Of a DNA stretch of 64,000 bases, positions 1 to 21,500 are shown one piece after another. Origin of the DNA: an uncultured bacterium (GTDB lineage Bacteria; Acidobacteriota; Thermoanaerobaculia; Multivoradales; JAHZIX01); the NCBI GenBank assembly GCA_965368975.1, contig CBDUPA010000001.1, positions 736,001-800,000 on the forward strand, read 5' to 3'. Made by a program: the position numbers and the translations under genes. The notes under the pieces are model-generated. The model was not told the origin of the DNA. It saw only the letters and a list, made by a program, of their open reading frames with translations, and did not search any database. Numbering within the stretch: position 1 is the stretch's first letter; each line of letters starts with the position of its first letter.

Positions 1-1819
1 CTCCTGGGCTGCGCAAGTCGGGCCAGTTGCCGACAGCGGCACTGAACTGTCGATCTTCGTAGGCGAAAGCTCCCCGCGCTCCTTCGAGGAAGCGTATCTC
101 ACCGGTTTCGCGGTAGAGGTGCAGCAGGGCGAGCCCGACACCGGCATTGCCGTGGGAAAGCCCGAGCTGTGCTGGTCCGTCCTCGTCGTGAACGGCTGCA
201 TAGCGGCCAGGCCAGATCCAGCACCCGTCTGCGGTCTCCGCACTCTCGCACAGCTGATCGCCCAGGGCGAGCGCAGCGCGCCGCAGGCGCTTGAAACCAG
301 TGGCGTTATAGAGCTCCAGGAGCATTGGAATCGTGCCGCTGTCTCCGCTGATGAAGTCCACTGGTCGGTCTGCTTCTGGTGCGATGGCCTCTTCGAGGCT
401 AAAAGCATCCAAGTGCTGATCGACCTGTGCAGTGAGGTTGTCGTCCCCGAGTCGGTTTGCACAGTGCCGAGTTGCCCAGAGATGTCCGGCGAGCCCGCCA
501 AACGGACTCAGATCCTGAGCGCCTGGCTCGGCTCGTTCTGCCTGCCAGAGCGTCTGTTGGAGCAGGCCTAGCAAAGTATCTCGAAGCCGTTCCTCGCGGG
601 TCGCCAGGAAGAGTTCCGCAAGGAAGAGCGCAACGCCGGAAGTGCCATCGTGCATTTCGGCCGGAAGTGTGCAGACCGCGGCATATCCTCCCCAACCATC
701 GAGCTTCGAGGGAGAGCAACGGCTGAGCCAATTGCAGCGTCCTTGATACCAGTTGGCTTCTTGGCAAAGGTCGAGACCAATGCCGAGGGCACACTGAGAG
801 AGGCTTGCTGGAGAGGGCTTTCTGTGGGGTTCGTGTCTACGAGATGCGCGGCGGATTCCTGGTAAGGGGTAGCAAGCCTGAGATCGTGGCGCCCGGTACG
901 GCTTTGCCGGGTCCAGGCCGGCAGTGCGGAAAGCGGTATCAACGGTTTCTTCCTTGGGCTGGCCAGTTGTGAAGGCCTCTACGAGAGCTGAGGCGATCAA
1001 CTCGCATCGGTGTTCGCCGAAGCTCTCACCGCCGAGTGGCCCTTCGGCGACAGCCAGTCCGGGGGCCAGGGGCAAGGTGAAGCAGGGAGTTGCTTCATGA
1101 AGGCCATGTTCCACAGCCCGATAAAGTTCAGCGATAGCAAGAGCCACCGTGGCCCAACAGCCGGACTGCAGGTACAGAACGCCGGCATCGGCGCGTCCAT
1201 AAGCCGAGGGATCATCGGGTACCTTCGCCTTGAAGCTAATGCCGAGCGGGTCGAGTGTCTGGCAGAGCTGCTCTAGCCAGGTCGTGGCGCAGTCGGGATT
1301 CAGGTTCCAGTACAGGCGAAGTAGCCAGGGTGATTCTGAACTCGGTGAATCGGTGGTACCCAGAATGGAGTAGAAACCTGGGAGCCTGTTTGGGGCATCG
1401 CCTGGGATTCGAACCGAGATGGCGTCTCCTGGCTTCAGAGTTTCCTCGACATGACGGACATCGCTCAAAGGGCTGTGGAAGCGAATACCACCACGTTCAA
1501 CGATGCACCGCGCATCCGGGAGGATTTCTCTCAGTCTCCATCCGCTCTGCCAGCAGAACCTTCCTTCCTCGACCCGGAGAAGGTGCTGCCGAAAGAGTGC
1601 GGCCGAGTTGATCTCAGCAAGCGGGGCCATGACCGGAAGCTGCCGTGACCGCATGTAGACATGTTGGTAGAGGTGCCGAGTCAGAGATTCGACCAAGGAA
1701 CTGGACGGGGAACGGTGCAAGGTCTCGCCACACAGTCGGTAGCTGTTGCTGTCGATCAGGTCGATGGTTTCGACCGTGGTGCGAAGGTCGGTCGACCACT
1801 GTCGAGGGCCGAGAAACAT
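1..1819 (-). CDS. HopA1-family (LanY-like) lyase fused to LanC-like cyclase; 3' end runs off the window
   Basis: Not in the ORF track. Manual translation from ATG 1819 (just past the upstream kinase stop) stays open to base 1. N-half has HopA1 motifs RLYWNL, FKAKV, YGRADAGVLY, TPCFTLPLAPGLAVAE, ESFGEHRCELIA, GLDPAKPY. C-half has LanC motifs DGTSGVALFLAEL, DFISGDSG, GLSHGNAGVGLALL, NWPDLR. Confidence 0.85.
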   Translation of the reverse strand, partial: MFLGPRQWSTDLRTTVETIDLIDSNSYRLCGETLHRSPSSSLVESLTRHLYQHVYMRSRQLPVMAPLAEINSAALFRQHLLRVEEGRFCWQSGWRLREILPDARCIVERGGIRFHSPLSDVRHVEETLKPGDAISVRIPGDAPNRLPGFYSILGTTDSPSSESPWLLRLYWNLNPDCATTWLEQLCQTLDPLGISFKAKVPDDPSAYGRADAGVLYLQSGCWATVALAIAELYRAVEHGLHEATPCFTLPLAPGLAVAEGPLGGESFGEHRCELIASALVEAFTTGQPKEETVDTAFRTAGLDPAKPYRAPRSQACYPLPGIRRASRRHEPHRKPSPASLSQCALGIGLDLCQEANWYQGRCNWLSRCSPSKLDGWGGYAAVCTLPAEMHDGTSGVALFLAELFLATREERLRDTLLGLLQQTLWQAERAEPGAQDLSPFGGLAGHLWATRHCANRLGDDNLTAQVDQHLDAFSLEEAIAPEADRPVDFISGDSGTIPMLLELYNATGFKRLRRAALALGDQLCESAETADGCWIWPGRYAAVHDEDGPAQLGLSHGNAGVGLALLHLYRETGEIRFLEGARGAFAYEDRQFSAAVGNWPDLRSPG

Positions 1820-1823
1820 GAAG

Positions 1824-2954
1824 TCAGGCAGGGGGCGAGTCCTCCGCTGAGACAGGGGATTCCAGATCGTAGAGGTGGTGCGCCGCGTCGTCGGGATCCT
1901 TTAAGATATTCACTCCTAGCTGCGAGAGGAGAACCATGAGCGTGGTGTAGCCGGAGGCCCTGCGGCCGACCTCCTGTGCTGTTCCGAGTAACTGCACGCC
2001 AGAAAAGGCGACGGACCGCTGCAGGAGGTTTGCCGTTGCCTCCGTGGGTAACAGGGCGGCTTCCAGGTAGGCGTGCCAGAAGCCTTGGATCCATGGACGC
2101 ACCATTCTGAGTGGCATGCGAGCCGCCTGAGAGCGCTCAGCCGACTCGATGTCGGCTTCCATGGGCATGCTGGTGACCCAGAACCGCAAGAACTCGCGAA
2201 GGACGGCTCCGAGATCCCAAGCTGGATCCCCGAAGCGGGCCATCTCCCAATCCACGAGTCGCAGGGGCTGTTCGGTGTCGGCTATCCACAAGACGTTGTC
2301 GGATCGAATATCGCCGTGGATCAGCGTTTCATCCTGCCATCTGGATCGCCAGATCTCGAGAGGCTCCAGTAGCTCCACTTCTCCTTGAATGATGCGCAAC
2401 AAGTCCAACTGAGCTGGTCTCAGCTCGTTGCGGCGGGCCAGGTTTACTTTGGGAAACCAGAAGAGTCCGGGCGCACCCATGGGCAGCTTGGGTACGAAGC
2501 CGCCGAGGTCGAGCCTGCGGCGCCTCAGACCCCGGTGGACTCGGCCCAGGCTGCGGCCCAGGGCCTTGGCGATGGAGAGGCCTTGGGCAGACTCTTCGGT
2601 GCACGCCTGCAACCACGGTCGTGCGTTCCTGATCAGCTCTGCTGCCAGAACAGGATCAGGCGAGTCAGTCTTCTTTATCGCTGGTAACAGGGGCAGGAGG
2701 TCTCGGTGACCTGGAACTGCACCAAGGCATTGGTGCAGCCTTGCCTCGTACGCCAAAGGCGGGCCTTGCTCCGGTCTGCCAGAAGGTTTCTTGATCAGGT
2801 AGCCAGGTTGATTGGGAAACTCGACTCTCAAGCTTTGATTGAGCCGGAGAATCCAGGTGACACCCAGGCCATCGATCAGGTCTTTTTCGCGCAAGAAAGG
2901 ACACAACTCGAGGAGTTCTTTGCCCAGTTCTGACGGAGCTTCGAGGGGCTTCAC
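1824..2954 (-). CDS. APH/phosphotransferase-family kinase (class V lanthipeptide LanK-like)
   Basis: LIHGDIRSDN Brenner motif and LVDWEMARFGDPAWDLG; directly upstream of the HopA1-LanC gene; GTG start. Confidence 0.85.
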   Translation of the reverse strand: MKPLEAPSELGKELLELCPFLREKDLIDGLGVTWILRLNQSLRVEFPNQPGYLIKKPSGRPEQGPPLAYEARLHQCLGAVPGHRDLLPLLPAIKKTDSPDPVLAAELIRNARPWLQACTEESAQGLSIAKALGRSLGRVHRGLRRRRLDLGGFVPKLPMGAPGLFWFPKVNLARRNELRPAQLDLLRIIQGEVELLEPLEIWRSRWQDETLIHGDIRSDNVLWIADTEQPLRLVDWEMARFGDPAWDLGAVLREFLRFWVTSMPMEADIESAERSQAARMPLRMVRPWIQGFWHAYLEAALLPTEATANLLQRSVAFSGVQLLGTAQEVGRRASGYTTLMVLLSQLGVNILKDPDDAAHHLYDLESPVSAEDSPPA

Positions 2955-2975
2955 GCTTGCGGCCCGTTCCAGGTT

Positions 2976-3179
2976 TCAGGTGGCCGGCGAAGACGGCGAG
3001 CACCACTGAGGGTGACTATTTTGAAGCGTGCGTAAGGGGGGAAACCACACACAGTCTGGTGACGGCGAAGATCTGTCGTCTTCGGACTCGACTTCGGCTT
3101 GGGCCAAATAGGTGTCCGTAAGGTGACCCTTCAAGAAGTGGCTCGCGCGAGGGGACTGGCGGTGCTGTTTTTTGCGCAT
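2976..3179 (-). CDS. Putative RiPP (lanthipeptide) precursor peptide, 67 aa
   Basis: Strong RBS (GAGGAG 5 nt before ATG, overlapping the upstream stop). Leader-like N-half with an acidic stretch. C-terminal SSPSPDCVWFPPLRTLQNSHPQWCSPSSPAT has 2 Cys, 7 Ser, 2 Thr. Lies directly before the kinase and HopA1-LanC genes. Confidence 0.7.
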   Translation of the reverse strand: MRKKQHRQSPRASHFLKGHLTDTYLAQAEVESEDDRSSPSPDCVWFPPLRTLQNSHPQWCSPSSPAT

Positions 3180-3188
3180 ACGTTCTCC

Positions 3189-6100
3189 TCATAGGTTTCT
3201 GCATCCAACTGCTGGTGATCCCGCCGAGCGTACATATGTGGCGAGCTCATGATCGTCTACCAGAGTTTGGAACTGTTCGTCGGACCATTCGGCGTCGAGA
3301 AGCCGATGCACAATGGGTAACGCTTCTTCAATTCGCCCCAGCTCCAGCAGGGACTGAGCTCGAGTATCGAGAATCCGGCACTTCTCGGCTGGCAGTGCTT
3401 CCGCTAACTCGAGTGCTTTCTGCCAGCTGTTGCGAGCCAGATCCTCTTCGTCGCGTTGCTTCTGAATGCGACCAAGTTCGAGGTAGGTTCGAGCTGTCGC
3501 TTCCGTGTTTTGTGGATTCTCAGGCATATCCTGGAGAAGACGCAGGACCGTTCTTCCTTCTAGGAGAGCCAAATCCCATTTGCTCGCACTCTTATAGTGA
3601 TCCTGGAGAGCCGCATGCGACACAACTAGCCATAGTTGCAGGTGGGTGTAGGTCGGATGTTCATCTGCCACTTGTTTGAAGGTTTCACTGGCGCGGTGCA
3701 GGTAGGCCAGAGCTATCTCGGGCTGGTCCTCAAGTGCCGTGGCAAGGCCAACCCAGGTCTGTGCCAACGCTACAGGCCAAGTGTCCCGCAATGGGTCGAG
3801 TACGATCAGTTGTTGATAGAGGCGCTCGGCCTCTCGTAGTCTGTGGAGCGCGCTCGGCTTGTCAGCTGTAGCCAGATAGAGGTTTCCGAGATCGAGTTCG
3901 GTTATGGCCTGTGCTCTGAGCCAGGTGAGCTGTGTTGGATTGCCTTCCATCAGATTTCCGAGCCTTGTTCGTAACCTTTCAAGAGCACGTATTCCTTGTT
4001 GGAAATCGGACCGAGCCTGGTGGAGTGTTCCGAATAGTTGCAAGGTATCAACAAGCAGAGTTTCGGTTCGCCAGTTCGAAGTTGGCTCGAGTACAAGGTC
4101 TTCTGCAATCTGGAGCGCCTCCTCAGCATACTCCAAGCCCTGCTCGAAGTCTCCGATTCGGCAGTACAAGTGAGCGGTCTCCTGAAGATTCTGGCCTAGC
4201 AACAGGCGCCACTCGGTCGGCGCATCCTCCCTTCCTGCCAGTTGCCGCGCCAGCAGGCGAGAAGAGGCGAGACTGTCGAGTCCTTCCTGGGTTTTTTCCT
4301 GTCGAATCAGAACGGACGCAAGTCTAAGTCTTGCCCGGCTCAGGGCTCCTTGGACTCGGGCTTGGCTCGGATCTTTCTCATGTAGGGCCGCTAGGATGCG
4401 GACGGCTTTCTCATGTGCAGCTTGAGCCTGGTTGACATCCAGCCGCTCTTCTAAGACCCATCCGATGTTGAGATACGTGAGGGCGCGGCGAAGACTGTCC
4501 GCGGAGCTGAAGTCCGCCTGGGTTTGCGAGAAATGCTCCAAAGCTCTTTGAGCCACTTGATCCAGCAGGTCCAGGCGCCCCAGAGGTTCCAGATTTTCCT
4601 GCAGGTCGAAGAGCATGAAGTCGATCAACCCTTCCGCCTGCCGCCGCTGCTCTCCTTCGCGCTCCTTTGCCTGCATGGCCTGGAGCGCGAGGACAACGAC
4701 CACCACCAGGAAGATCGACGCCGTGACGGCAACTGCCTTGAGTCGTCGTCGGCGCCGGACCGCTTGCTGCGCAGCCCGCCTCGCTGCCCTTTCCGTTGCC
4801 CGTTCCGCCCGCCGTTGTTCCAGAGTGTACAGCTTCTCGGCAGCAATCAAGCCACTCGCCGGCCGCCGCTCCGGCCGGCCATCGACGAGCGTGCCAATGT
4901 CCTCGACCAGCAACTCCTCCTCGACATCCCGCTCCCAGCCGGAGGCCAAGGGCCGCTCGAAATCAGCCGCGACCAGTTGATAGAGCAGCACACCGAACGA
5001 GTAGAGATCCGCCTGGATCGTGGCCGGTCGGCCGGCAAGTAGCTCCGGTGCCATGTAGCCGAAGGTTCCCGCTCCGGAGTCCGTGGTCGGGGTTGCCGTC
5101 GCCGTGAAGCCGAGGGCAGTGAAATCTTGCCCTGCCAGCTGTTCTCGATCCGTCAGCAGTCCGATGCCAAAGTCGGTCAGGCGCGCGCGCGGGCGGCCAT
5201 CGCGGTCGCTGGTGATCAAGACGTTCTCGGGCTTGATGTCCTTGTGCAGCACGCCGACCGAGTGCGCCGCCGCCAGCGCCTCGGCGACTTCGGCGGCCAG
5301 TTCCAGGCGCACCTCGAGCGGTACTTGACTCAGGCCTCCTTGCTGCTCGGCCCAGCGCACCAGGCTGCCGCCCTCGGTGTACTCGGCCTCGACGAAGAAG
5401 GGAGCGCTGTCGAAATTCCAGTCCAGGATGCGCGCGATGTCGTCGCGCTGGCCCAGGGCTTCCTTGAGCAGGCGGAAGAGCGTCACCTCGCGCTTGAGCG
5501 CGCGCAGGCGCTCGGCCTCGAAGCAGAACTTGAAGACGCGCGCCTCGCCGGCTTTGTGGCGGGCCAGCCAGACCTCGCCGAAGCCACCTTCGCCGACGCG
5601 CTCTTCCAGCTTCCAGTGCGGTCGACCGGGAATGGGTTGACCACCGGCGGGGCGCCAGCCGAGCATGCGTTCTTCGCTGACGGACAGGGCCCGCCGGGCA
5701 TCGGTGCGTTCGGAGGGAGGTCGTAGGGCCGACAGCCCGTCGAGACCGACCTCGAACACGTCCAGAGGGGTTTCTCGGCCCCTGAGCAGGTAGCTGCCGT
5801 GCGCCAGCCAGCGAAGACTGCTCTTGCCGCCGTCTTCCGTGCCGTCGCGGGAGTCCGGATGGGCACGGCGCGCGAGGTCGAAGGCGGTACGGCTGAGCAG
5901 GATCTGGTTGCCAGCGGCGAGGTGTAAGAGCTGGCAGGCGGTTCCCTTCTCGCTACCTTCGACTTCCACCTCCGGTGCACCTTGCTGCCTCTCGGCAGAG
6001 GAGGGACGGTGCACCAGAACTTCCGCCGTGTGGATGGCGGCGCGGATCGGCAACTCGACCGCGAAGGTGGAGGCCACTTCGAGGATGGCCCGCTGGGTGG

Positions 6101-7361
6101 ACAAGGCGCAGGCGACAGCATCGGCGGGGCGTTCGAAGACGGCGAGCAGGCTGTCGGCTTTCTCGGCCACCGAGCCGCCGTACAGGGACACCAGGTCGCG
6201 CAGGCGCCGGTCGTACCGGCTCAGGAGGCTGGCCGCGGTGCCGTCGCCGTGGCGCTGGGGCAGGGCGGCGCGGTGGAGCAGTTCGACGTGGAGCAAGGTG
6301 CGAACGGCTGGAGTGCCGGTAGGAGGGGAGGGGAACCATTCGCCGGTCGCCTGCTCGCTCGTGGCGGGGTTGCCGTCGAGTTCGCCGTGGCTGGCGGAAG
6401 CCCGCCGCGTACCTGACGGCCGTGGCAGGGCAGAGGTGTCGGGCTGGAGGAGCACGCCAGGGCCAGTGCCGGCATCCGTGCCAGGGCCAGGGCCGCTTCG
6501 CAGTCGTTCCAGCGAAGCGGCCACCAGGCTGGCGTTGGCGGGGCGCTGGTGCGGGTCCTTGGCCAGCAGGGCCTCGACTAGCTGCAGCAGGTCGGCTGGC
6601 AGCCGCGGCTGCAATTGAGCTAGGGAAGTCGGAGGTTCTGCAGTGATGCGGCACAGGGTGTCGAGCAAGTTCGTCCCCTGGAAGGGGGGGCGACCGCTGA
6701 GCATCTGGTAGAGCAGGCTGCCGAGGGCGAAGAGGTCCGATCGGTGGTCGAGCGGACGGCCGCTGGCCTGCTCGGGAGACATTGCATGGACGGTGCCGAC
6801 CAGGGCTCCCGCTTCGGTCAGGGTCTGGGAGCCGATAGGGTCCTGGAGGAGCGGGTCTTGGGACGACGTGTCCCTGCGCCAGAGGCAGTGCACCAGGCCG
6901 AAGTCGAGGATCTTGGCATGTCCGGCGGCGGTCAGGCGGACGTTCTCGGGCTTCAGGTCTCGGTGGACGAAGCCGCGAGCGTGCGCCTCGGCCAGACCTT
7001 GGGCGATCTCCGTACCGAGACGTAACGTCTGGTCGAGGTCGAGGGGGCCGTCTGTCAGCAGATCGGCCAGGCTCGGCCCCTCGACGTACTCCATGACCAG
7101 GCAATCGCCGTCGTCGGTGGAAACGATGTCGAAGATCTGGACGATCGCCGGATGGTTGAGGCCCGCCACGGCCCGGGCTTCGCGCCGGAAGCGCTCACGT
7201 CGCCGCGGATCGACTTCCAGGTCTTCGCGGATGCGCTTGATGGCGACTTTCCGGTGCAGGCGCTCATCGCGCGCCAGGAAGACCTCTCCCATCCCTCCGA
7301 CGCCGAGCCTGGACTCGACGCGGTAGGAACCAAAGCTGAGTTCGACTGATGCTGTGGGCAT
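3189..7361 (-). CDS. Membrane receptor: two Hanks-type Ser/Thr kinase domains flanking a degenerate class III nucleotidyl cyclase-like domain, TM helix, C-terminal TPR region
   Basis: Kinase 1: GVGGMGEV, AIK, HRDLKPEN, DFG. Middle: TLLHVEL...EKADSLLAVF...AVACAL...IRAAIHTAEV, cyclase-like. Kinase 2: GEGGFGEVW, HKDIKPEN, DFG, APE. TM: AVAVTASIFLVVVVVLAL. Helical TPR-like C-terminus. Confidence 0.88.
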   Translation of the reverse strand: MPTASVELSFGSYRVESRLGVGGMGEVFLARDERLHRKVAIKRIREDLEVDPRRRERFRREARAVAGLNHPAIVQIFDIVSTDDGDCLVMEYVEGPSLADLLTDGPLDLDQTLRLGTEIAQGLAEAHARGFVHRDLKPENVRLTAAGHAKILDFGLVHCLWRRDTSSQDPLLQDPIGSQTLTEAGALVGTVHAMSPEQASGRPLDHRSDLFALGSLLYQMLSGRPPFQGTNLLDTLCRITAEPPTSLAQLQPRLPADLLQLVEALLAKDPHQRPANASLVAASLERLRSGPGPGTDAGTGPGVLLQPDTSALPRPSGTRRASASHGELDGNPATSEQATGEWFPSPPTGTPAVRTLLHVELLHRAALPQRHGDGTAASLLSRYDRRLRDLVSLYGGSVAEKADSLLAVFERPADAVACALSTQRAILEVASTFAVELPIRAAIHTAEVLVHRPSSAERQQGAPEVEVEGSEKGTACQLLHLAAGNQILLSRTAFDLARRAHPDSRDGTEDGGKSSLRWLAHGSYLLRGRETPLDVFEVGLDGLSALRPPSERTDARRALSVSEERMLGWRPAGGQPIPGRPHWKLEERVGEGGFGEVWLARHKAGEARVFKFCFEAERLRALKREVTLFRLLKEALGQRDDIARILDWNFDSAPFFVEAEYTEGGSLVRWAEQQGGLSQVPLEVRLELAAEVAEALAAAHSVGVLHKDIKPENVLITSDRDGRPRARLTDFGIGLLTDREQLAGQDFTALGFTATATPTTDSGAGTFGYMAPELLAGRPATIQADLYSFGVLLYQLVAADFERPLASGWERDVEEELLVEDIGTLVDGRPERRPASGLIAAEKLYTLEQRRAERATERAARRAAQQAVRRRRRLKAVAVTASIFLVVVVVLALQAMQAKEREGEQRRQAEGLIDFMLFDLQENLEPLGRLDLLDQVAQRALEHFSQTQADFSSADSLRRALTYLNIGWVLEERLDVNQAQAAHEKAVRILAALHEKDPSQARVQGALSRARLRLASVLIRQEKTQEGLDSLASSRLLARQLAGREDAPTEWRLLLGQNLQETAHLYCRIGDFEQGLEYAEEALQIAEDLVLEPTSNWRTETLLVDTLQLFGTLHQARSDFQQGIRALERLRTRLGNLMEGNPTQLTWLRAQAITELDLGNLYLATADKPSALHRLREAERLYQQLIVLDPLRDTWPVALAQTWVGLATALEDQPEIALAYLHRASETFKQVADEHPTYTHLQLWLVVSHAALQDHYKSASKWDLALLEGRTVLRLLQDMPENPQNTEATARTYLELGRIQKQRDEEDLARNSWQKALELAEALPAEKCRILDTRAQSLLELGRIEEALPIVHRLLDAEWSDEQFQTLVDDHELATYVRSAGSPAVGCRNL

Positions 7362-7391: not shown

Positions 7392-8048
7392 TCAACTCGT
7401 GACTTGCTTGTTTCTTTCCGGCTTGCCTTTCTCCAGAGTGTGCAGCAGCCAGAGACGCGCGCTGCGCCACTCTCGCTTGACAGTGCGCGGTGAGATCTCG
7501 AGGGTATGTGCGGTCTCTTCGACGGTGAGACCAGCAAAGTAGCGCAGTTCGACGATACGGCTCTGCCGAGGAGCCAGTTGTGTCAGCTCGTGCAGGGCTC
7601 GGTCGAGATCGAGCAAGTCGACGGTGCGGTGCCGATGGCCCCCTGCGCTCCAAGCCTCATCGATCGGAATGATGGTGCAGTCGCCGCCATGCCGCATCGC
7701 TTGGTTGCGGCGGGCGTGGTTGATCAGGAGCCGCCGCATGGTGGTGCCCATGTAGGCGAAGAATTGCGCTCGGCACTGCCAGCTCAGCTCGCGCCCCCCC
7801 GTCAAGCGCAGATACGCCTCGTTCACCAGGGCGGTCGGCTGTAGCGTGTGGCCCCGACGCTGACGCTGTAGGTGGAAGGCGGCGAGTTGACGCAGGTCGT
7901 TGAGCACCAGTGGAAATACGTGCGCCAAGGCAGAAGCGTCCCCCCGAGCCCAGGCGTCGAGAAGCTGGGTGACCTCTCCGGACGGTGGCTCGGTGAAGGC
8001 GCGGCCTTCTTCGTTCGGCGGAGACTCCTGAGGAATGCTACCTACCAT
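7392..8048 (-). CDS. ECF sigma factor of the Ser/Thr-kinase-associated type (TIGR02999-like)
   Basis: EVTQLLDAW.RGD..AL, HTLQPTALVNEAYLRL, IVELRYFAGLTVEETA..LEISPRTVKREW; immediately upstream of a kinase gene. Confidence 0.92.
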   Translation of the reverse strand: MVGSIPQESPPNEEGRAFTEPPSGEVTQLLDAWARGDASALAHVFPLVLNDLRQLAAFHLQRQRRGHTLQPTALVNEAYLRLTGGRELSWQCRAQFFAYMGTTMRRLLINHARRNQAMRHGGDCTIIPIDEAWSAGGHRHRTVDLLDLDRALHELTQLAPRQSRIVELRYFAGLTVEETAHTLEISPRTVKREWRSARLWLLHTLEKGKPERNKQVTS

Positions 8049-8154
8049 TGTCCTCTCCTATCGTCCCTTGAGTAGATGTCGCTGCCGGGTGAAGCGCAGT
8101 AGGGCAGAGGACTGGACCATTGTCTTCCCTAGCGGCAAGGAAACTGAGGCGTAG

Positions 8155-10062
8155 CTACTCGTCGAGCTGATCCTTGATACCGAGCCTGCGGATCATGCGG
8201 TGCAGCGAATTGACGTGGATGCCCAGCCGGTCGGCGGTGACGCCGTAGTCGCCGCCGGCTGCGCGGTAGGCGTCGAGGATCAGCTTGCGCTTGAACTCGA
8301 CCAGGGCGGCCTGGAACTCGGACGGCACCTCGGCCGTGCTCTCGCGCACTTCTTCCGGCAGATCCTCGGGTTCGACGACGTCGGTTTCGCCGAGCACCAA
8401 GGCGCGCTCGATGACGTTGCCCAGCTCGCGCACGTTGCCGGGCCAGTCGTAGGCTTGCAGGCAGCGCTCTGCGGCCTGCGAGACGGTGACACCGAGGCGG
8501 CCGAGGCGACGGCCCTGGACGGCCAGGAAGTGACTGCACAGGAGCGGGATGTCGTCGCGACGCTGGCGCAGGGGTGGTGGTTCCAGGGTGATCACCTTGA
8601 GGCGGTAGTAGAGGTCCTCGCGGAACTCGCCGGCACGGATGGCTGCTTCCAGGTCGCGGTTGGTGGCGGCGACGATGCGCACGTCGACGTCGATCGGCCG
8701 CGTCCCACCGACGCGCTCGAATTGCCGCTCCTGCACCACGCGCAGCAGCTTGGCCTGGATCGGCGGTGGAATCTCACCCACCTCGTCGAGAAAGAGAGTG
8801 CCGCCGCCGGCGGTCTCGAACTTGCCGGGCTTGCGCGCCACGGCGCCGGTGAAGGCACCTTTCTCGTGCCCGAAGAGTTCGCTTTCGAGCAGCGTCTCAG
8901 ACAGGGTGGCGCAGTTCACCGCCACGAAAGGACCGGCGGAGCGCGCGCTCGAACGGTGAATGGCCTGGGCGGTGAGTTCCTTGCCGGTCCCGCTCTCGCC
9001 GCGAAGCAACACGGTGGTGTCGGAGCGCGCGACCTTGCCGATGAGGTCGAGCAGCCGCCGCATGGCGGCGCTTGCGCCGATCAAGTCGTGCTGCAGCTGC
9101 TGCGCTTGCAGGCGCCGGTTCTCGGCTTCCAGCCGCTGTAGCTGCAGGCTGTTGGCGAGCGCCAGGGAGGCCACGGCTGACAAACCCTCGAGCAGGTCGA
9201 GGTGGTGAGCGTCGAAGGCACCGGCGACGTGAGTCTCGCCGGTCAGCACGGCCAGCACGGACTCGCCCGCGGGATCGAGGAGGGGAGCCGCGACCCGTGT
9301 GCCGAGGGTGGAGTCGGTGAGTTGCGTGCAGCGCTCGTGCACGGCTTTTTCGACGATTGTCTCCACGAGGGTCCGATTTGCCGCGATTCCATCGGCGGCG
9401 ATTCCATCCCGGCTGGCTGGGCCGGGCTCCACCTGCCGCGAACGCTGCGCCAGCACTTGCGGCTGCTCGTCACCAGGCTGCCACCAGAGCACCTGGGTGC
9501 GCTGTGCGGGTAGGGCCTCGAGCAGTGCGGCGACCACGCGCTCGCCGCACTGCTCCGGCAGCAGTGGCCCCTGCAGTTCGGTGCTCCAGCGCAGCAGGGT
9601 CTGCAGGTCGCGGGCGATCCGCGCCTGGACGGGGAGTTCGGCGTCCAGGTGAGCCGGATCGAGCAGCAAGATCTCGGTGGCTCTGCGCGCGAAGGTACTG
9701 CGGCCGGTGGTCCTTCTGCTGCCGGCAAGTCTTGCGCTCTCGCGTGGCTCGATGCCGCGCGTGTCGGTATCGTTGAGCAGGAAGAGCAAGACACTGCCGC
9801 CGAGAGTCAGCAGGTCGCTGTGTACCAGCTGGTGTTGTCGCACCGGCCGGCCATTGACGAAGACCCCGTGCCGGCTTCCGAGGTCCTGGAGGGTATAGCC
9901 GCCATCGCTGCCCGGCAGCAACTCGCAGTGTCGGCGCGAGATCTCCAGGCTCTCCAGGCGCAAATCACAGTCAGCACTGCGACCGATCGTGAACGGCTTC
10001 GTGAGCAGCGGAAAGGTCTGACCCGCGGCGGGGCCACTGATAGCTACCAGGCGTGGTTTCAA
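8155..10062 (-). CDS. Sigma-54-dependent activator with FHA and GAF-like domains
   Basis: FHA motifs [17 protein letters not shown]; AAA+ motifs [37 protein letters not shown]; C-terminal HTH; TTG start. Confidence 0.92.
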
Positions 10063-10071
10063 CGTGGGCGG

Positions 10072-10080
10072 ATTCTACCA
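10072..10080 (-). promoter_or_regulatory. Putative extended -10 promoter (TGGTAGAAT)
   Basis: TGnTAGAAT about 10 nt upstream of the TTG start of the sigma-54 activator; implies a near-leaderless transcript. Confidence 0.45.
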
Positions 10081-10150
10081 TGCGGTGCGCTCCTGGCTGG
10101 GACTGCTGAGTTCCCCGCAGCGGTAGCGGATGGCCTGGTTCTCGTTGGGC

Positions 10151-12394
10151 TTACTCCTGTTCGGCCTCTTCCAACTGGACCCGTGCCCGACCGACCCGCA
10201 CCAGCTCGCGGCCGGTGCGGATCAGGAAGGTGCCGGGAAGGGCTGCCACGCCGTAGACGGTGTCGTCGGTTGGCAGCAGATTCTCAGCCACGACGGTGAC
10301 CTCGTCGCCATCGTGCCGCAGCACGGTGGTGGCGCCCTTGCGGGTGAAGAAGTACACGCGGTCGCCAGCGGCAACAGGGGAGGCCCAGCAGGCCTCGGCC
10401 AGCCGGTGGCGCCAGCGCAACGCGCCGGTGTCTCGATCGGCGCAGCTGACGACGCCGGCCTTGTTGACGAAGAGAACGCAGTCGCCGTGCACCAGCGGTG
10501 AGCCGAAGCCCGAAGTGATGCCGTCGCCGCGCCACTGGATGCGTGAGTCATCGTTCGCTGCCTCTGGTAGCGTGCCGCGCCGCAGCGCGAAGTTGTGGGC
10601 CGCGCTGCTGCTGGCGACGATCACGAGCTTGCCGTCGATGGTCGCGGACGCCGCCGTGTTGCCTTCCAGACCGTCGAGGCGCCAGCGCACGTCGCCCGTT
10701 GTCGCATCGACGGCTTCGACATGGCCGTTGGCGGAGGAAAGCAGTTCCGCCCCGGTTGGCCCCGGGGCGACGGCCGGCGTCGTCCAGGCGACGCGCGCTG
10801 GCCGCTCGACCTTCCAGTGCGTCGCGCCGGTCTGCCGATCGAGCGCGATCAAGTAGGACGGACCTTCGTGGGTTGCCTGGACGATCACGGACGTTCCTGC
10901 CAGGACAGGCGAGCTGGCGATGCCGTGGTTGCCCTGGAACGGTCCGTAGTCGTCGGTCAGCGAGCGCCGCCACAGGCTCTCGCCCTGGTGGTCGACGGCG
11001 ATGAGGTCGCCGCTCTCCCAGAAAGCATAGACGCGCCGCGCGTCGACCACCGGCGTCGGCGCCGCGCGCGACACCATGTCGCTGGACTGGATCTTCTGGC
11101 TCGCCGCGTAGCGGTACTGCCAGTTCACGTCGCCGGTGCTCAGGTCCAGGCAGGTCAGGACCAGCGTTTCCTTGAACTCGCCCTCGACGCTGGTCACAAA
11201 CACCTGGTCCCCCCACACGACCGGGCTCGACTGGCCGTACCCGGGCAACTCGACTTGCCAGGCCAGCTCGCTCGGCGACCAGCTGACGGGCATGTCGGCG
11301 GAGTGGGCGTGGCTGTTGCCGAAGCCGCGAAAGCCGGGCCAAGCGGCGACGGCGTCTTTACCCAGGGTGCTCAGCGGCACGACCTCGATGTCGGCCCGGT
11401 GCCCCCCGCGGTGGGCACCCCCGACGAAGAGTACCTGGTTGCCGTCGACCAGCAGGCGGTGGAAGAAACGCGGATGTTCCAGGGTGTGGACGCCGGCATG
11501 CCAGGTACCCGTCGGGTCGAGCACGTGGACATTGCCGTCGGCGGTCGAGGTGTAGAGGTGACTGCCGGCGCCGAAGGCGGAAGCACCGAAACCCTTGAGC
11601 CCTTCCGTGGCCGGCAAGTCCGGGCCCTGCGACCAGCTTCCGGCGTCAGGGTCGAAGACATCGACCCGGCGGCTGGTGCCGTCGTCGTGCAGGCCTCCGA
11701 TAGCGTACAGACGCCCGGCCGCCGAGGCGGCTGCCAGAGCGCGGCGCTGGAACGGCTGCTCGAGACGTTCCCAGGCCGGTTCGGCAGCGCTCGGGTCGAG
11801 GCGCCACAGCTCGTCGTGCCACGCGGGATCGAGCTCGGCTCCGCGCAGCTGCCAGCCGCCGACGACGTAGATGTGACCGTCGAGCACCACGGCGTCGTGT
11901 GACGAGCGCGGCGCGGGCAGCGGCGGCAGGGCATGCCAGGTGCCGGCTGCGTCGCCGTTGGCAGTCTCGCCTGCTGGCCGGAAGCACTGGACATCGTCGA
12001 CCGAGAACAGGTCTTCGTCTTCCTCTTGACCGTTGCGTGCGGTCATGCCGCCGAGCCGGCACACTGCGTCGCTGACCGCGACCAGCGCCAGCCCTTGCAG
12101 GCCGGGTACCGGGCCGAGATCCTGCCAGCCGCCGTCGGGGCGTCGCAGGTCGAGGCGCCGGAAGTGGTGGGACAGGTTGTTGGTCGAGTGCTGGTGGGAG
12201 CGGCCGACGTGGCCTCCATAGACGTAGAGGTGATCCCCGAGGACGGCGGCGCCGAAACTGGCGACCGCTTCGGGCATCTCGGGCAGTGGCATCTCGGGCA
12301 GGGGCGTATCCGCCCTCGCTGGCACAGCTCCGAAGGCGAGCAGGCAGCAGGCGAGCAGCAGAGAGACGGTGGTATTGCGTAGGTTCATCTGCAT
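10151..12394 (-). CDS. Secreted Kelch-repeat plus PQQ-like (BamB-type) double beta-propeller protein
   Basis: Signal peptide; Kelch repeats (YVYGG, YVVGGW, YAIGG); then WPGFRG...W...PGYGQSSPVVWG and repeated SSPV/W motifs of PQQ-like propellers. Confidence 0.82.
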   Translation of the reverse strand: MQMNLRNTTVSLLLACCLLAFGAVPARADTPLPEMPLPEMPEAVASFGAAVLGDHLYVYGGHVGRSHQHSTNNLSHHFRRLDLRRPDGGWQDLGPVPGLQGLALVAVSDAVCRLGGMTARNGQEEDEDLFSVDDVQCFRPAGETANGDAAGTWHALPPLPAPRSSHDAVVLDGHIYVVGGWQLRGAELDPAWHDELWRLDPSAAEPAWERLEQPFQRRALAAASAAGRLYAIGGLHDDGTSRRVDVFDPDAGSWSQGPDLPATEGLKGFGASAFGAGSHLYTSTADGNVHVLDPTGTWHAGVHTLEHPRFFHRLLVDGNQVLFVGGAHRGGHRADIEVVPLSTLGKDAVAAWPGFRGFGNSHAHSADMPVSWSPSELAWQVELPGYGQSSPVVWGDQVFVTSVEGEFKETLVLTCLDLSTGDVNWQYRYAASQKIQSSDMVSRAAPTPVVDARRVYAFWESGDLIAVDHQGESLWRRSLTDDYGPFQGNHGIASSPVLAGTSVIVQATHEGPSYLIALDRQTGATHWKVERPARVAWTTPAVAPGPTGAELLSSANGHVEAVDATTGDVRWRLDGLEGNTAASATIDGKLVIVASSSAAHNFALRRGTLPEAANDDSRIQWRGDGITSGFGSPLVHGDCVLFVNKAGVVSCADRDTGALRWRHRLAEACWASPVAAGDRVYFFTRKGATTVLRHDGDEVTVVAENLLPTDDTVYGVAALPGTFLIRTGRELVRVGRARVQLEEAEQE

Positions 12395-12398
12395 CTCC

Positions 12399-14687
12399 TC
12401 AGAAGTGCACGCGCAGCTGCGCGCCGAAGTTGCGGCCGGGGCTGGTGTAGCGGTCGAGCGTCGCGGAGGTCTGCGCCTGGCCGCGCACGTACGGCCACTG
12501 CCAGTAGGCCTCGTCCGTCAGGTTCCAGCCGCTGAGCTGGAGTGACAGGCGGTCGTGAAGCGCGATCCACAGTGCCAGGTCGACGACTTCGTAGCCTGGG
12601 GCGCGGAATTGCGTCGAGTCGGTGGGCAGGTCGCTGGCAGCCTTGGCCGCGACCTGCGTCGCCGTCAGCTCGGCGCCCCAGCGCTCGCGGGCGGCGTAGC
12701 GCAGGCCGAGCACCAGGCGCGGCGGCGCGATCGATGTGAGGGGTTGGTCCGCCAGCTCGTCGTCACCTTCGATCCAGGTGTAAGCCGCGCGCAGATTCCA
12801 GCCGCTGCCCAGGTCTGTCTCGGCGGCGAGTTCGAGGCCGCGGATGCGCACGTCCTGCAGGTTCTGCGGCTGGAACTCGACCAGGAAGAGCCGTGGGTTG
12901 AAGCCCAGGAAGACGGTCTCGATGAAGTCCTGATAGCGGTTGTCGAAGCTGGTCAGGCTGAAGCTGCCGCGCTGGCCACCTGCTTTGCCGTCCTTGTTGC
13001 TGATGGTGAACGTTGCGCGCACGCCTAGCTCGTAGTTGTCGCTGGTTTCGGGCCGCAGGTCCGGGTTGGGCAGGGTGTGGTAGCCACCGGCCTGGTTGGT
13101 GAAGCCGTTGTTGATCGAGCTCATTGGCGGTGCTCGGAATCCGCGCGCGACCTGGCCGAAGACGGAAACTTCGTCACTCAGCGCCAGCACCGCGCCGAGA
13201 CGCGGAGACACCGCTTCCTCGATGTAGTCCACCGGTGCGAGTGTGCCCGGGTTGCCGGAAAGATAGATCGAGTCCTGCTGGTCGGCGTCTAGATTGTAGC
13301 GGTCGAGACGCAGGCCGGGGACCAGCTTCAGGCGGCCGTTCCACAGGTCGAACTCACCCTGGACGAAGACGCCCAGCTCCTCGACCTCCGAGCGCGGGAA
13401 GTACTTGCTCGGCAGCGCCAGCGACTGCGCGATCGCCTCTCCGCTGGCGAGCAGGAACTCGCTGCGGTCGCGCAACTGGTCGAAGCTGTCGCGCTGCAGG
13501 CTGAGGCCGTAGGTCAGCACTTGCCGGCCGTCGCCGCACAGGTCTTTGCGCAGGTCGATCTCGAGCCCCAGAGTTTCCTGCTCGAAGGTCAGCAAGCCTT
13601 CGCGGTGTAGGCCGGCCGTGACGCCAGCGATGTCACGCTCACGCAGCTCGTCGGTGACCTGCCCGGTGTTGCTCTGCTGGGTGTAGGCGCGCCAGAGCAG
13701 CGAATCGGCCAGCGTCGTCTGCAGCACCAAGCTGTGCTCTACGCTGCCGCGCCAGCGCTCCTGCCGGTCCTCGGCGGCGAGAGCGAGGATGGTGTCCGGC
13801 TGGGCGGGCCCCTGCGCCGGCGCCAGGCTGCTGAGCACGTCCGTGTCGGTGCTGCCCTCGAACCATTCGAGAGCGAATTCGAGCTGGTTGCTGGGGCTCA
13901 GGCTGTGGCCCAGCTTGGCCAGGAGGTTGTCTTGCTGGCGGTCGATCGGATTGGGACGTGTGCGGGTGAAGTCCGAGTTGCCGATGTCGCCCTGGTTGTC
14001 CTGCTCGTGGCCGTCACGGTGACTGTAGAACAGCAGACCTTGCCAGGTGTCATGCCCAAACGCGATGGTGGCGGCTTCGGAGATCTCGTCGGCGCGGCCG
14101 TCGTAGCCACCGCGCAGGCCCAGGTACAAGGGGCCGCCGTCGAGATAGGAGCGCGGTGAGCGGGTCGTCAGGCTGACGACGCCGCCGAGCGCGTCGCTGC
14201 CGTAGAGCGCCGAGCCGGCACTGCGCACGATCTCGACTCGCGACAGTGTGTCGAGGTCGAGGGTGTACTGCGGGACACCGAACGGGCCGAAGTCGAATTG
14301 CTCGGCCGTCGGGATGCCGTCGATGCGTGTCTGCACTCGATTGCCGCCAATGCCGCGGATGTTGAAGCCGTTGCTACCGAGGCGGGTGAGATCACCGTCG
14401 ACATAGATGCCCGGCAGATAGCGCACCAGGTCGCTGAGCTGCCTGTGGCCCAGTTCTTCGATCTCAGCGGCTCCCACCACGTCGACCTGTCCCGGTGTGT
14501 CCTTGACCGCGCGTTCCGAGCGCGTCGCTGTTACAGTGATGGTCTCAAGTAGCGTGATATCGTCCCAATTCTGGGAAGGCGGTTGCGGGGTTGCCGCGGT
14601 CGAAGGGACGGTCAAGCCGAGACCCAAGGCCACGGCCAATGTCCACCGCGTGAGTCCGCCCGGACTCACATTCATGGCACAGTTCAT
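12399..14687 (-). CDS. TonB-dependent outer-membrane receptor, heme/hemoglobin/transferrin type
   Basis: TonB box ETITVTATR; plug motifs NIRGIGGNRV..IDG and SALYGSDALGGVV; FRAP and NPDL motifs; C-terminal Phe. Start moved to ATG 14687 (RBS GGAGGA). Confidence 0.9.
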   Translation of the reverse strand: MNCAMNVSPGGLTRWTLAVALGLGLTVPSTAATPQPPSQNWDDITLLETITVTATRSERAVKDTPGQVDVVGAAEIEELGHRQLSDLVRYLPGIYVDGDLTRLGSNGFNIRGIGGNRVQTRIDGIPTAEQFDFGPFGVPQYTLDLDTLSRVEIVRSAGSALYGSDALGGVVSLTTRSPRSYLDGGPLYLGLRGGYDGRADEISEAATIAFGHDTWQGLLFYSHRDGHEQDNQGDIGNSDFTRTRPNPIDRQQDNLLAKLGHSLSPSNQLEFALEWFEGSTDTDVLSSLAPAQGPAQPDTILALAAEDRQERWRGSVEHSLVLQTTLADSLLWRAYTQQSNTGQVTDELRERDIAGVTAGLHREGLLTFEQETLGLEIDLRKDLCGDGRQVLTYGLSLQRDSFDQLRDRSEFLLASGEAIAQSLALPSKYFPRSEVEELGVFVQGEFDLWNGRLKLVPGLRLDRYNLDADQQDSIYLSGNPGTLAPVDYIEEAVSPRLGAVLALSDEVSVFGQVARGFRAPPMSSINNGFTNQAGGYHTLPNPDLRPETSDNYELGVRATFTISNKDGKAGGQRGSFSLTSFDNRYQDFIETVFLGFNPRLFLVEFQPQNLQDVRIRGLELAAETDLGSGWNLRAAYTWIEGDDELADQPLTSIAPPRLVLGLRYAARERWGAELTATQVAAKAASDLPTDSTQFRAPGYEVVDLALWIALHDRLSLQLSGWNLTDEAYWQWPYVRGQAQTSATLDRYTSPGRNFGAQLRVHF

Positions 14688-14857
14688 GGATGCTTCCTCC
14701 ATGGATCGCCGCGCCGGTTGCCGCCGGCACGGTGGTTGTTTCCTAGGGGCGATGGTCCGCCAGCTTTCGCGAGTCGACGGGCCATCGCCTGTTTCCGTTT
14801 GAGTCGGCCCTAGCTTGTCTCTCCGGAACTCCCAGCAGAGAGGTGACGAGAGGTTGT

Positions 14858-14872
14858 TGAGACAATGTCTCA
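14858..14872. promoter_or_regulatory. Fur-box-like 7-1-7 operator TGAGACA-A-TGTCTCA
   Basis: Perfect inverted repeat resembling the Fur 7-1-7 motif, upstream of a heme-type TonB receptor. Confidence 0.55.
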
Positions 14873-14887
14873 TTATGGCCTGGGCAA

Positions 14888-14916
14888 ATACTGGACCATA
14901 ATGGTCCCCTTGTCAA
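14888..14916 (-). promoter_or_regulatory. Putative sigma-70 promoter (TTGACA-N17-CAGTAT) with palindrome GGACCAT-A-ATGGTCC in the spacer
   Basis: Perfect -35 TTGACA at 14916-14911 pointing toward the receptor; perfect 7-1-7 palindrome at 14893-14907. Confidence 0.5.
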
Positions 14917-15011
14917 ATGCCCGCTCCAAGGGGTAGTCGGTTTACAATCGACGCGATCCTCTGCTCGCTATCTTGATCTGTACCGCTCCGCTTCATCGAC
15001 CAGGAGTTCCT

Positions 15012-16451
15012 GTGCCTAGGAAGACCGCGCCCCTGACTCCCGAGCTGCGGGCCAACCACCGCTCGCTGTCCTCGACTTCCGAACACTTCGTCGACTTCAT
15101 CGTCGAACAGCCGGCGTGGCATCGCATCATCACGGACATCTTCGATGTCGTGCCGGAACTCGAGCCGCACGAGGTGCAGACTTGGCCGACGTTCGTGGAT
15201 CGCGAGGTCTACGACGGGATGGGGCGCGTGGCAGTGCGCATCTTCGACCTGGTCAAGAGCCTGCCCGAGCGCCTGTGTGGCAGCGATCCGACGAAGGTCG
15301 CCGAGTTGTGGCGGCTACCGAGCGTCGAGGCGGCCGAGAAGATCCTGCAGGAGCCGGTGGGCTGGAGCGCGGCGACGGCACGGGTTGACTTCATGCTAGG
15401 TCCAGACGGCTGGCAAGCCCTGGAGCTGAACGTCTCGCCGTCGCTCGGTGGCGTCCAGCTGTACGCCATTTGGGACCTGTGCCTGGAGCAGCCGACGATC
15501 CAGGAATTCGTGGCCCAAGAGGTAGCGCGCGGCGGCGGCGAGCTCGAGGCGGTGCAGACGTTGGTCGAATTCCAGCAGTACCTGGTGCGCGACACGCTCG
15601 ACTTCCTGCAGGACGTGGGCGGTTCTGGCTCGCCGAGGGACGTCAACATGGGCTGGTGCGTGCCGGAGTCGGTGGACATCGAGGCGGCGGAAGAAAACCT
15701 GAATCACTTCTACGCCGAGCTGCTGGAGACCGTCGACCCAGCGCTGTCGGGCAAGTACGTCCTGTTCACGGACTACGCGCAGCTGGAGGAGAAGGACGAC
15801 GGTCTTTACTGCCGGGGCCAGCGCCTGCACATGATGCAGTGCTTCCCGAGCTACGATCTACCGGACGTGCTCTACCGGGCCTTCAAGGCGCGCAAGCTGA
15901 GCCTCTATGGCGCACCGATGCAGAACCTGCTCAGCGATCGTCGTTGCCTGTGCTTGTTGTCCGAGCACGCGTCGAATCGCGAACTGTTCAGCGCCGAAGA
16001 GCGGGCGTTCATCCAGCGTCACGTGCCGTGGACGCGGCTGGTGCGACCGGGGCGGACACGCTGGCATGGACGCTTCGCGCGCACCGAGAAGCTGCTTCTC
16101 GAGCAGCGCGACAAACTGCTGGTCAAGCCCTGCCTGGCGCACGGCGGCGACGGCGTCACCGCGGGCTTCGCACGCACGGACCGTCAGTGGCAGCGGTTGA
16201 TCGAGCACGCGCTGGCAGCACCGGACGACGCCACGCAGGAGATGATCGTGCAGGAGTTCGTGCCCTCGAAGCTCTACCTGTACCAGGTCGGCGAGCAAGG
16301 CTTTGCGCCGCACCGCATGGTGTGGGGCTGCTTCGTCTTCGGCGAGCAACCGGCGGGGCCCTACGTGCGCGTGATTCCGGAGTCCTTGCACCAGGGTGTG
16401 GTCAACGTGCAGAAGGGGGCCTTGCAGTCGCCGGTGGTGCTGGTCGGCTGA
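15012..16451 (+). CDS. Circularly permuted ATP-grasp (glutathionylspermidine synthase-like) ligase, paralog 1
   Basis: ARVDF, LELNV.PSLGG, VKPCLAHGGDGV, IVQEFV, GCFVFG, VVNVQKGA; GTG start after AGGAG. Confidence 0.72.
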   Translation: MPRKTAPLTPELRANHRSLSSTSEHFVDFIVEQPAWHRIITDIFDVVPELEPHEVQTWPTFVDREVYDGMGRVAVRIFDLVKSLPERLCGSDPTKVAELWRLPSVEAAEKILQEPVGWSAATARVDFMLGPDGWQALELNVSPSLGGVQLYAIWDLCLEQPTIQEFVAQEVARGGGELEAVQTLVEFQQYLVRDTLDFLQDVGGSGSPRDVNMGWCVPESVDIEAAEENLNHFYAELLETVDPALSGKYVLFTDYAQLEEKDDGLYCRGQRLHMMQCFPSYDLPDVLYRAFKARKLSLYGAPMQNLLSDRRCLCLLSEHASNRELFSAEERAFIQRHVPWTRLVRPGRTRWHGRFARTEKLLLEQRDKLLVKPCLAHGGDGVTAGFARTDRQWQRLIEHALAAPDDATQEMIVQEFVPSKLYLYQVGEQGFAPHRMVWGCFVFGEQPAGPYVRVIPESLHQGVVNVQKGALQSPVVLVG

Positions 16452-16498
16452 ACTCAGCGTTCGATTTTGATTTGATCCAAGGAGGAGGAACTGTACCC

Positions 16499-17959: not shown

Positions 17960-18136
17960 GGTCTTTCGCCCCGGCGGGCTGCGCAGTCGCGTTGCTGGCG
18001 CCTCCGAGGCTGTGCTAGGGTTCCGTCGTTTCCTTGAAGTGATGTCGCCCCCCTCACTGCAAATCCGCCGGAGCTACCCGCTGGCTGGTCTCGCGAATCG
18101 CTGGGTTCGTGCCCGCCGGCATAGGAGAGTCCACGC

Positions 18137-19771: not shown

Positions 19772-19799
19772 GTGCGGCCTCTTTCCTCCGTCGGAGACT

Positions 19800-19817
19800 T
19801 TGTGACAAAATGCACAA
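19800..19817. promoter_or_regulatory. Rex- or CRP-like operator TTGTGACAAAATGCACAA upstream of nqr
   Basis: Two mismatches to Rex TTGTGAA-N4-TTCACAA and one mismatch to CRP TGTGA-N6-TCACA; AT-rich patch in GC-rich intergenic DNA before nqrA. Confidence 0.5.
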
Positions 19818-20068
19818 GCGGCTGCGGGGGGAGATACTGAGCCGCGCGACCACGACACAGCGAGCGCTTCGCACCTTTCCATAATTCATCACAGCCACAG
19901 CTTCGACACGGAGTTCCATCGAGTCCTTGCCGTCCGCACTTTCCGCGCGCCCACGATAGCTGCGCGCGCTTTCCCCTGGCGGCCCCACCTATGCAAGGAC
20001 ACCTCGGAAGCTGGCACGGGATGGAGAAGGATGAGGACGCATCTTCTGACCTGAAATAGGAACGGAAC

Positions 20069-21490: not shown

Positions 21491-21500
21491 GGAGGAACGG

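Follow-up and report, generated by a model that had tools for sequence, protein, structure and literature searches.

A probable minimal class Vb-type lanthipeptide cassette with a fused lyase-cyclase in an uncultured acidobacterium

Introduction

Does a compact three-gene locus of an uncultured bacterium encode a lanthipeptide synthetase in which phosphate lyase and cyclase are one polypeptide, and is the short peptide gene in front of it the substrate? The locus lies at the left end of a 64,000-nucleotide stretch of DNA assigned to the Acidobacteriota (GenBank assembly GCA_965368975.1, contig CBDUPA010000001.1, forward-strand positions 736,001 to 800,000; G000:C1:736001-800000 in our numbering), called the window below. 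A preliminary description of its first 3179 bases had proposed a class V-like lanthipeptide cluster, formed by a peptide gene, a gene for an APH-type kinase and a longer frame combining HopA1 (LanY) and LanC motifs, all tightly packed on the minus strand. The combination of a separate kinase (LanK), lyase (LanY) and LanC, with LanC making the rings, has already been named class Vb (PMC11186320, PMC12291118). Our analysis makes it likely that the locus is a minimal cassette of this type, lanA-lanK-lanYC, in which lanY and lanC are a single gene.

Results

Layout of the cassette

When open reading frames (ORFs) are listed with open ends allowed, the minus strand of window positions 1-3179 contains three: one of 67 amino acids (aa), one of 376 aa and a long frame that runs from 1819 to the left edge of the window, 606 aa without a stop. 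The default ORF list omits the long frame because it runs past the window edge. In the genome sequence, followed for 14 kb further left, the frame is closed by a stop 463 bases left of the window, for a total of 760 aa. The gaps between the genes are 21 bases (67-aa ORF to kinase) and 4 bases (kinase to long frame), and ORF listing and Pfam together confirm the tightly packed trio. The features of the cassette are as follows.

1..1819 (whole gene G000:C1:735537-737819), minus strand: lanYC, 606 of 760 codons in the window (open frame, genomic stop, Pfam)
2..664, minus strand: LanC cyclase domain, N-terminal 221 residues (386-606) (PF05147, E 5e-52)
665..892, minus strand: interdomain linker, residues 310-385, poorly conserved up to about residue 350
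893..1393, minus strand: HopA1-type phosphoSer/Thr lyase domain, residues 143-309 (PF17914, E 2e-38)
1824..2954, minus strand: lanK, 376 aa, GTG start (PF01636)
2976..3179, minus strand: candidate lanA, 67 aa, ATG start (ORF, and position as in relatives)
3105..3137, minus strand: leader motif FLKGHLTDTYL, peptide residues 15-25 (aligns with the end of the leader profile described below)
3185..3190, minus strand: Shine-Dalgarno-like GAGGAG, 5 bases before the peptide ATG (direct reading)

The enzymes and their catalytic residues

Both domains of the long frame are matched strongly by their Pfam models, with LANC_like PF05147 covering residues 386-755 and ending outside the window. A stop or frameshift between HopA1 and LanC was looked for and is absent, so that lyase and cyclase do share one 760-aa polypeptide, as had been proposed, with the kinase as a separate protein. 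The domain positions first suggested, about 1819-890 for the HopA1 motifs and about 800-1 for the LanC motifs, were roughly right, Pfam placing the domains at 893-1393 and from 664 leftwards, respectively. Three zinc-ligand motifs can be recognised in the cyclase: SHG at residues 555-557 (H556), which is inside the window, and WCHG at 625-628 (C626/H627) and LCHG at 678-681 (C679/H680), both located further left, among the 154 residues beyond the window edge, where the preliminary description had expected such ligands. They align with the motifs of the class II enzyme LicM2 (6ST5), the best solved relative of the cyclase half (E 1e-15).

When the fusion protein is aligned with 20 relatives, Arg168, Lys199 and Arg209 of the lyase are invariant, and Tyr216, His556, Cys626, Cys679 and His680 are conserved in at least 90% of the sequences. 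The linker has no majority residue across most of its length in the consensus of these proteins and is also the place where split relatives break. The spacing of Arg168, Lys199, Arg209 and Tyr216 matches that of Arg187, Lys219, Arg229 and Tyr236 of CaoY (PMC9486802), for which mutagenesis is reported to show that Arg187 and Lys219 are required for phosphate elimination (PMC9486802). The best solved relative of the lyase domain is the LxmY lyase, chain 9DK1_B (E 1.9e-8), with the Lys, Arg and Tyr residues aligned.

The 376-aa protein belongs to the APH family (PF01636, E 2e-13), and its kinase residues Lys55, His213, Asp215, Asn220 and Asp235 are invariant in 33 relatives. Among solved proteins, its best relative is LxmK, chain 9DK1_A (E 1.3e-8); kinase and lyase domain therefore each point to one of the two chains of the same entry, which according to a review is the LxmK-LxmY lexapeptide dehydratase heterodimer (PMC12141560). 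The best NCBIfam model for the kinase is also LxmK (NF038156), with 90.6 bits against a cut-off of 315, so equivalog level is not reached; a score so far below the cut-off makes the kinase a distant relative of LxmK rather than an orthologue. Judged by these alignments, the catalytic residues of lyase, cyclase and kinase are all present, and the locus is a real and probably functional fused variant of a class Vb-type system.

Fused and split relatives

Could the fusion be an artefact of assembly or sequencing, lanY and lanC really being separate genes? Relatives were collected from two sources. A search of a 5.8-billion-protein collection (8000 candidates, cut-off E <= 0.001) returned 91 proteins, all with generic source names: in 53 both Pfam domains sit on a single chain, 4 have LanC alone and 34 resemble LanM. 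The second source, a profile scan in which each species was represented by one genome, supplied the best 80 of at least 481 confirmed relatives; 80 metagenome loci were added, and many records are metagenome bins. Fused and split calls were based on tblastn matches and open frames. When genome contigs were scanned with the single sequence of the fusion protein, no relatives were found; it was the alignment-based scan that yielded them.

A kinase homologue lies directly upstream on the same strand in 71 of the 80 genome loci. HopA1 and LanC are fused in one open frame in 26, are adjacent genes in 49, and five have no HopA1 match. In 14 of the 49 loci with separate genes, the stop of HopA1 and the first possible start of LanC overlap by 4 bases, which indicates that the split forms are real. 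The 75 genome loci with both parts span 12 named phyla, with fused forms in eight. Genomes and metagenomes together give 140 loci, 49 of them fused and 91 split.

A tree was calculated with 66 rows, nine of the 75 genome loci being left out for short matches. The fused/split label needs nine changes on this tree, at least six of them forced by well-supported branches, and shuffled labels need 19.2 on average. These changes, together with the 49 fused loci out of 140, indicate that the two genes have been joined or separated repeatedly and that the fused form is a common one for this cassette. The window protein is sister to a fused protein from an Acidobacteria bin (support 96); with an Acidobacteria metagenome-assembled genome as its nearest row, the tree, on its own, agrees with the probable acidobacterial origin proposed beforehand.

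An artefact is thus extremely improbable. The prevalence of split relatives and the many metagenome bins among the records would fit it, but the 53 double-domain chains among the 91 proteins, the fused genome loci, which include isolates of Tumebacillus, Catellatospora and Pseudomonas, and the fused sister row all contradict it. A short contig from a public run also spans window positions 564-818, in the linker, without a difference; this is of limited independence, as four short contigs of one DNA run are identical to the stretch and probably come from the source sample. No RNA data set is listed as covering the stretch. One locus of the set stands apart: a 5-kb contig of a Nitrososphaeraceae archaeon bin (L012:583-3998) encodes the kinase and a fused HopA1-LanC protein, and is either a rare archaeal case or mis-binned.

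A leader domain upstream of the kinase

A tblastn search of the related loci with the 67-aa peptide gave weak matches (best E 0.038), four of which led to a shared leader motif. Six ORFs upstream of kinases, found via these matches, were used to build a leader profile, which was then iterated. The resulting leader domain, of about 105 residues, is present in 74 loci, always on the strand of the cassette and upstream of the kinase; thus, of the 125 loci with a kinase match, 74 have a Cys-rich protein with this domain ahead of the kinase. No Pfam or NCBIfam model covers the domain. A profile of 50 leaders matched 3391 representative proteins at E <= 0.001, and 2151 at 1e-10, in a library of 1.84 billion proteins. 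The domain forms the N-terminus of proteins of 124-816 aa, and the ten that were looked up are all named 'hypothetical protein' or unnamed.

The cores behind the leader are 74 residues long in the median and 773 at most, with 20 of 77 exceeding 200 residues. Median composition is 9% Cys and 15% Ser plus Thr. Cysteine is present in 75 of the 77 cores, and many are repetitive. Of all gene families in about 160 loci, only those of precursor, kinase, HopA1 and LanC are widely shared, and no protease, transporter or tailoring gene is common to the cassettes in this set. All-against-all clustering of the small ORFs near the cassettes returned mostly out-of-frame shadows of real genes; its one use was to point to repetitive precursor genes.

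Some precursor genes are very large. In several loci, for example the five given here, genes of 560-930 codons precede the kinase (L036:2864-5665, L037:3224-5614, L061:2822-5083, L032:3384-5702 and L082:3764-5626). They contain hundreds of Cys/Ser/Thr/Pro-rich repeat residues, and one core has 82 cysteines in 773 residues; in the Bacteroidota locus L082 such repeats occur without the leader domain. If fully modified, these giant precursors would be heavily thioether-bridged proteins rather than peptides.

A broader reading can be built on these data, and we put it forward tentatively, leaning against it when its parts are taken jointly. According to it, the cassette would be a minimal member of a very large, unannotated family that crosses phyla, in which LanK, LanY and LanC modify proteins with the 105-residue leader. 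Their cores, rich in Cys, Ser and Thr, often built of repeats and reaching about 770 residues with 50-80 cysteines, would become heavily lanthionine-bridged, the products being proteins rather than small peptides, with no dedicated protease or exporter serving them. The terminal [FY][LF]xGx[ILV] motif of the leader would be the minimal recognition element, and all that the window peptide keeps of it, and a tight complex of the three enzymes would lie behind the way LanY and LanC have repeatedly been joined and parted.

The 67-aa ORF as candidate precursor

The 67-aa ORF shares strand and upstream-of-kinase position with the precursors of the relatives. It has a basic N-terminus, followed by the leader motif, an acidic stretch and a Ser/Thr/Pro-rich C-terminal part that contains both of its cysteines, Cys43 and Cys60. 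The Shine-Dalgarno-like GAGGAG in front of its ATG overlaps the stop codon of an upstream protein kinase gene. The G+C content at third codon positions is 0.66 in its frame, compared with 0.49-0.55 in the other frames and 0.64-0.69 in neighbouring genes. A promoter and terminator scan gave no signal above chance, no model in Pfam or NCBIfam matches the peptide, and the ESM Atlas returned nothing but unnamed clusters, all below 0.9.

Residues 13-26 align, at 5.7 bits, with the extreme end of the leader profile; one of 5000 shuffles reaches this score, and hhalign against the same profile gives P 0.006 for the peptide compared with 0.45 for an overlapping 62-aa ORF. The motif [FY][LF]xGx[ILV], at peptide residues 15-20, includes the leader glycine, which, along with a single other position, is invariant in all 50 leaders. 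A regular expression of this type finds 130 matches in 13.2 million residues, a figure that is indicative only, as the pattern was devised after the peptide was known. Support for membership of the peptide in the leader family, as far as sequence comparison goes, is therefore real but modest. Short precursors whose apparent starts lie 5-20 residues before the motif are found in at least eight other loci (L009, L060, L104, L107, L115, L171, L137 and L076), upstream of the kinase, with a Cys-containing end and in several cases with fused enzymes. A link between short leaders and fused enzymes was considered (8 of 14 short versus 24 of 73 long) and dropped; the comparison ignores kinship and nothing is inferred from it.

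Several observations weigh against the 67-aa ORF as the working substrate gene of the cassette. It lacks the first 85 or so residues of the leader domain, and a profile search at E values up to 10 found no full leader domain anywhere in the genome, so the peptide could be a truncated remnant. No homologue of it is present in the 5.8-billion-protein collection, and the closest relative of the enzymes in the homologue search is only 52% identical. In searches with two short motif profiles the peptide comes 372nd and 2734th among 148,748 six-frame genome ORFs, so the motif alone is not significant genome-wide. A second locus on another contig, C11 (L175, G000:C11:150001-162000, positions 4103-6448, minus strand), encodes a 336-aa kinase and a 438-aa HopA1-LanC chain in which the LanC part extends over the first 48 or so Pfam model positions only, with the zinc-ligand region missing, and no precursor-like ORF lies upstream of its kinase. 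By its sequence this is clearly a decayed paralogue that has lost most of its cyclase.

These points can be combined into an account in which the enzymes are intact and the 67-aa ORF is what is left of a long-leader precursor, dead and truncated at its N-terminus, or no gene at all, leaving the cassette an orphan or with its substrate elsewhere; the decayed paralogue shows that the genome does lose such systems. We judge this account rather unlikely. Both enzymes keep all their catalytic residues, short precursors with the same near-N-terminal motif stand beside intact enzymes in the eight or more loci listed above, and the ORF itself has a ribosome-binding site, an ATG start, a coding-like third-position G+C content and a profile score rarely reached by shuffled sequences. 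The 67-aa ORF is therefore likely to be the true substrate of the cassette. The label 'non-canonical precursor', given to it initially, needs refining: most of the leader domain is missing, but the terminal leader motif of the relatives is still there.

Proposed mechanism

From gene order, domain content, catalytic residues and the family-wide association of cassette and precursor, we infer the substrate, its recognition, the chemistry and the number of rings in a lanA-lanK-lanYC cassette, which remains our favoured interpretation of the locus and a likely one. By analogy with the characterised class V dehydratases, LanK would bind the short leader of the 67-aa peptide via FLKGHL...YL and phosphorylate Ser and Thr residues of the C-terminal part. 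The HopA1-type domain, held on LanK as LxmY is on LxmK, would eliminate the phosphate to give dehydroalanine and dehydrobutyrine. The zinc-containing LanC domain of the same chain would then add Cys43 and Cys60 to these, forming up to two lanthionine or methyllanthionine rings. With lyase and cyclase fused, this would be a two-protein synthetase.

Genomic surroundings

Upstream of the candidate precursor gene, on the same strand, are three further genes.

3189..7361, minus strand: protein kinase, 1390 aa, with two kinase domains, a predicted membrane stretch and TPR repeats (Pfam)
7392..8048, minus strand: extracytoplasmic function (ECF) sigma factor (PF07638, E 7e-52), 30 bases upstream of the protein kinase gene
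8155-10062, minus strand: FHA-domain sigma-54 activator, directly upstream of the ECF sigma factor gene

The protein kinase gene ends 9 bases before the peptide ORF. An upstream protein kinase in the same direction occurs in 14 of about 160 related loci, the next cluster after the four shared families, and a homologue of the ECF sigma factor is near the cassette in one related locus only. With these counts the pair was ruled out as conserved partners of the cassette; a regulatory link to it is possible.

The arrangement also raises the question of whether the kinase and lyase-cyclase could act on proteins, for example on phosphosites of the neighbouring Ser/Thr protein kinase, with LanC capping or cross-linking the dehydroamino acids. 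Eukaryotic LanC-like proteins are reported to act on dehydroamino acids in this way. The tight packing of the cassette behind the ECF sigma factor and the 1390-aa protein kinase would suit such a role, as would the lack of a protease or exporter conserved with the cassette and the recurrence of an upstream protein kinase in some of the related loci. We nevertheless consider it very unlikely: most related loci lack the protein kinase, a dedicated Cys-rich substrate gene stands directly before the kinase in 74 of 125 loci, and pairs of ECF sigma factor and protein kinase recur in this genome anyway. A second such pair, an ECF sigma factor (PF07638) and a Ser/Thr protein kinase, is located 4 kb away (L002:9112-12097, minus strand), so that the cassette has one such pair on either side.

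The 14 kb to the left also contain a MacB-type permease gene and, convergent with the fusion gene, a plus-strand gene (L002:12384-13442, left of the window) for a protein of 352 aa whose N-terminus resembles a signal peptide; this protein contains three GELDTELEIDPNL-type repeats and matches no Pfam or NCBIfam family. Further right are genes for a Kelch/PQQ propeller protein and a TonB receptor, followed by housekeeping genes. The preliminary description had seen no decarboxylase or methyltransferase gene, and there is none among the ten ORFs of at least 200 aa in window positions 8000-24000 or the nine ORFs of the left flank. Nor was a gene for a LanD-type flavoprotein decarboxylase or a second kinase-like protein found among the larger ORFs scanned, up to 14 kb leftwards and 24 kb rightwards.

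Discussion

According to a 2025 review, class V lanthipeptides have so far been found in actinobacteria alone (PMC12328550). The relatives collected here spread the LanK/LanY/LanC machinery over at least 12 phyla. A natural two-protein form should lend itself better to expression and structural work than three separate proteins, and the short precursor suggests its 11-residue motif as the likely recognition element. The unannotated leader domain, for which there are 3391 representative clusters, and the giant cores rich in Cys point to a large pool of thioether-bridged products that is still unexplored. In the open-access full-text literature searched, which leaves supplements and Pei et al. 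2022 outside its scope, neither a LanY-LanC fusion nor the 105-residue leader domain is described.

Among the known lanthipeptide synthetases, the class II LanM enzymes are the closest relatives of the cyclase half: TIGR03897 (LanM) matches it over model positions 537-932 with 232 bits, the family cut-off being 304, while the LanM dehydratase domain PF13575 is absent here. The LanKC enzymes of class III and the LanL enzymes of class IV likewise phosphorylate, eliminate and cyclise, and they also have lyase and cyclase on one polypeptide; the LanL cyclase is a zinc LanC domain, as in the window fusion. However, in LanL and LanKC a central PF00069 kinase lies between an OspF-type lyase and the cyclase, whereas here the kinase is a separate protein of APH fold and the lyase is of the HopA1 type. 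In line with this, the fusion protein has no PF00069 domain in Pfam, and its NCBIfam scores for LanL (114.5 bits, cut-off 650) and LanKC (68.4 bits, cut-off 575) are low.

With the class Va pairs LxmK-LxmY and CaoK-CaoY the cassette shares the conserved Arg, Lys, Arg and Tyr of the lyase, as far as these are described in PMC9486802 and PMC12141560. The known class Va pair is a kinase-lyase heterodimer in which the kinase binds the leader. Class Va clusters have LanD and LanX and no LanC; the window cassette is the reverse, and the relationship in sequence is distant (E about 1e-8).

The nearest match is class Vb, of which the Smo system of Streptomyces, attributed to Pei et al. 2022 (PMC11186320, PMC12291118, PMC12328550), is an example. 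The three activities are the same, the families are again PF01636, PF17914 and PF05147, and neither has LanD or LanX. The locus differs from described class Vb systems in that LanY and LanC form one 760-aa chain and the host is not an actinobacterium. Since the name class Vb is already in use for LanK, LanY and LanC, the locus represents a fused variant of that subgroup and not a new class; the class itself is known, and what is new at this locus is its fused, short-leader, non-actinobacterial form.

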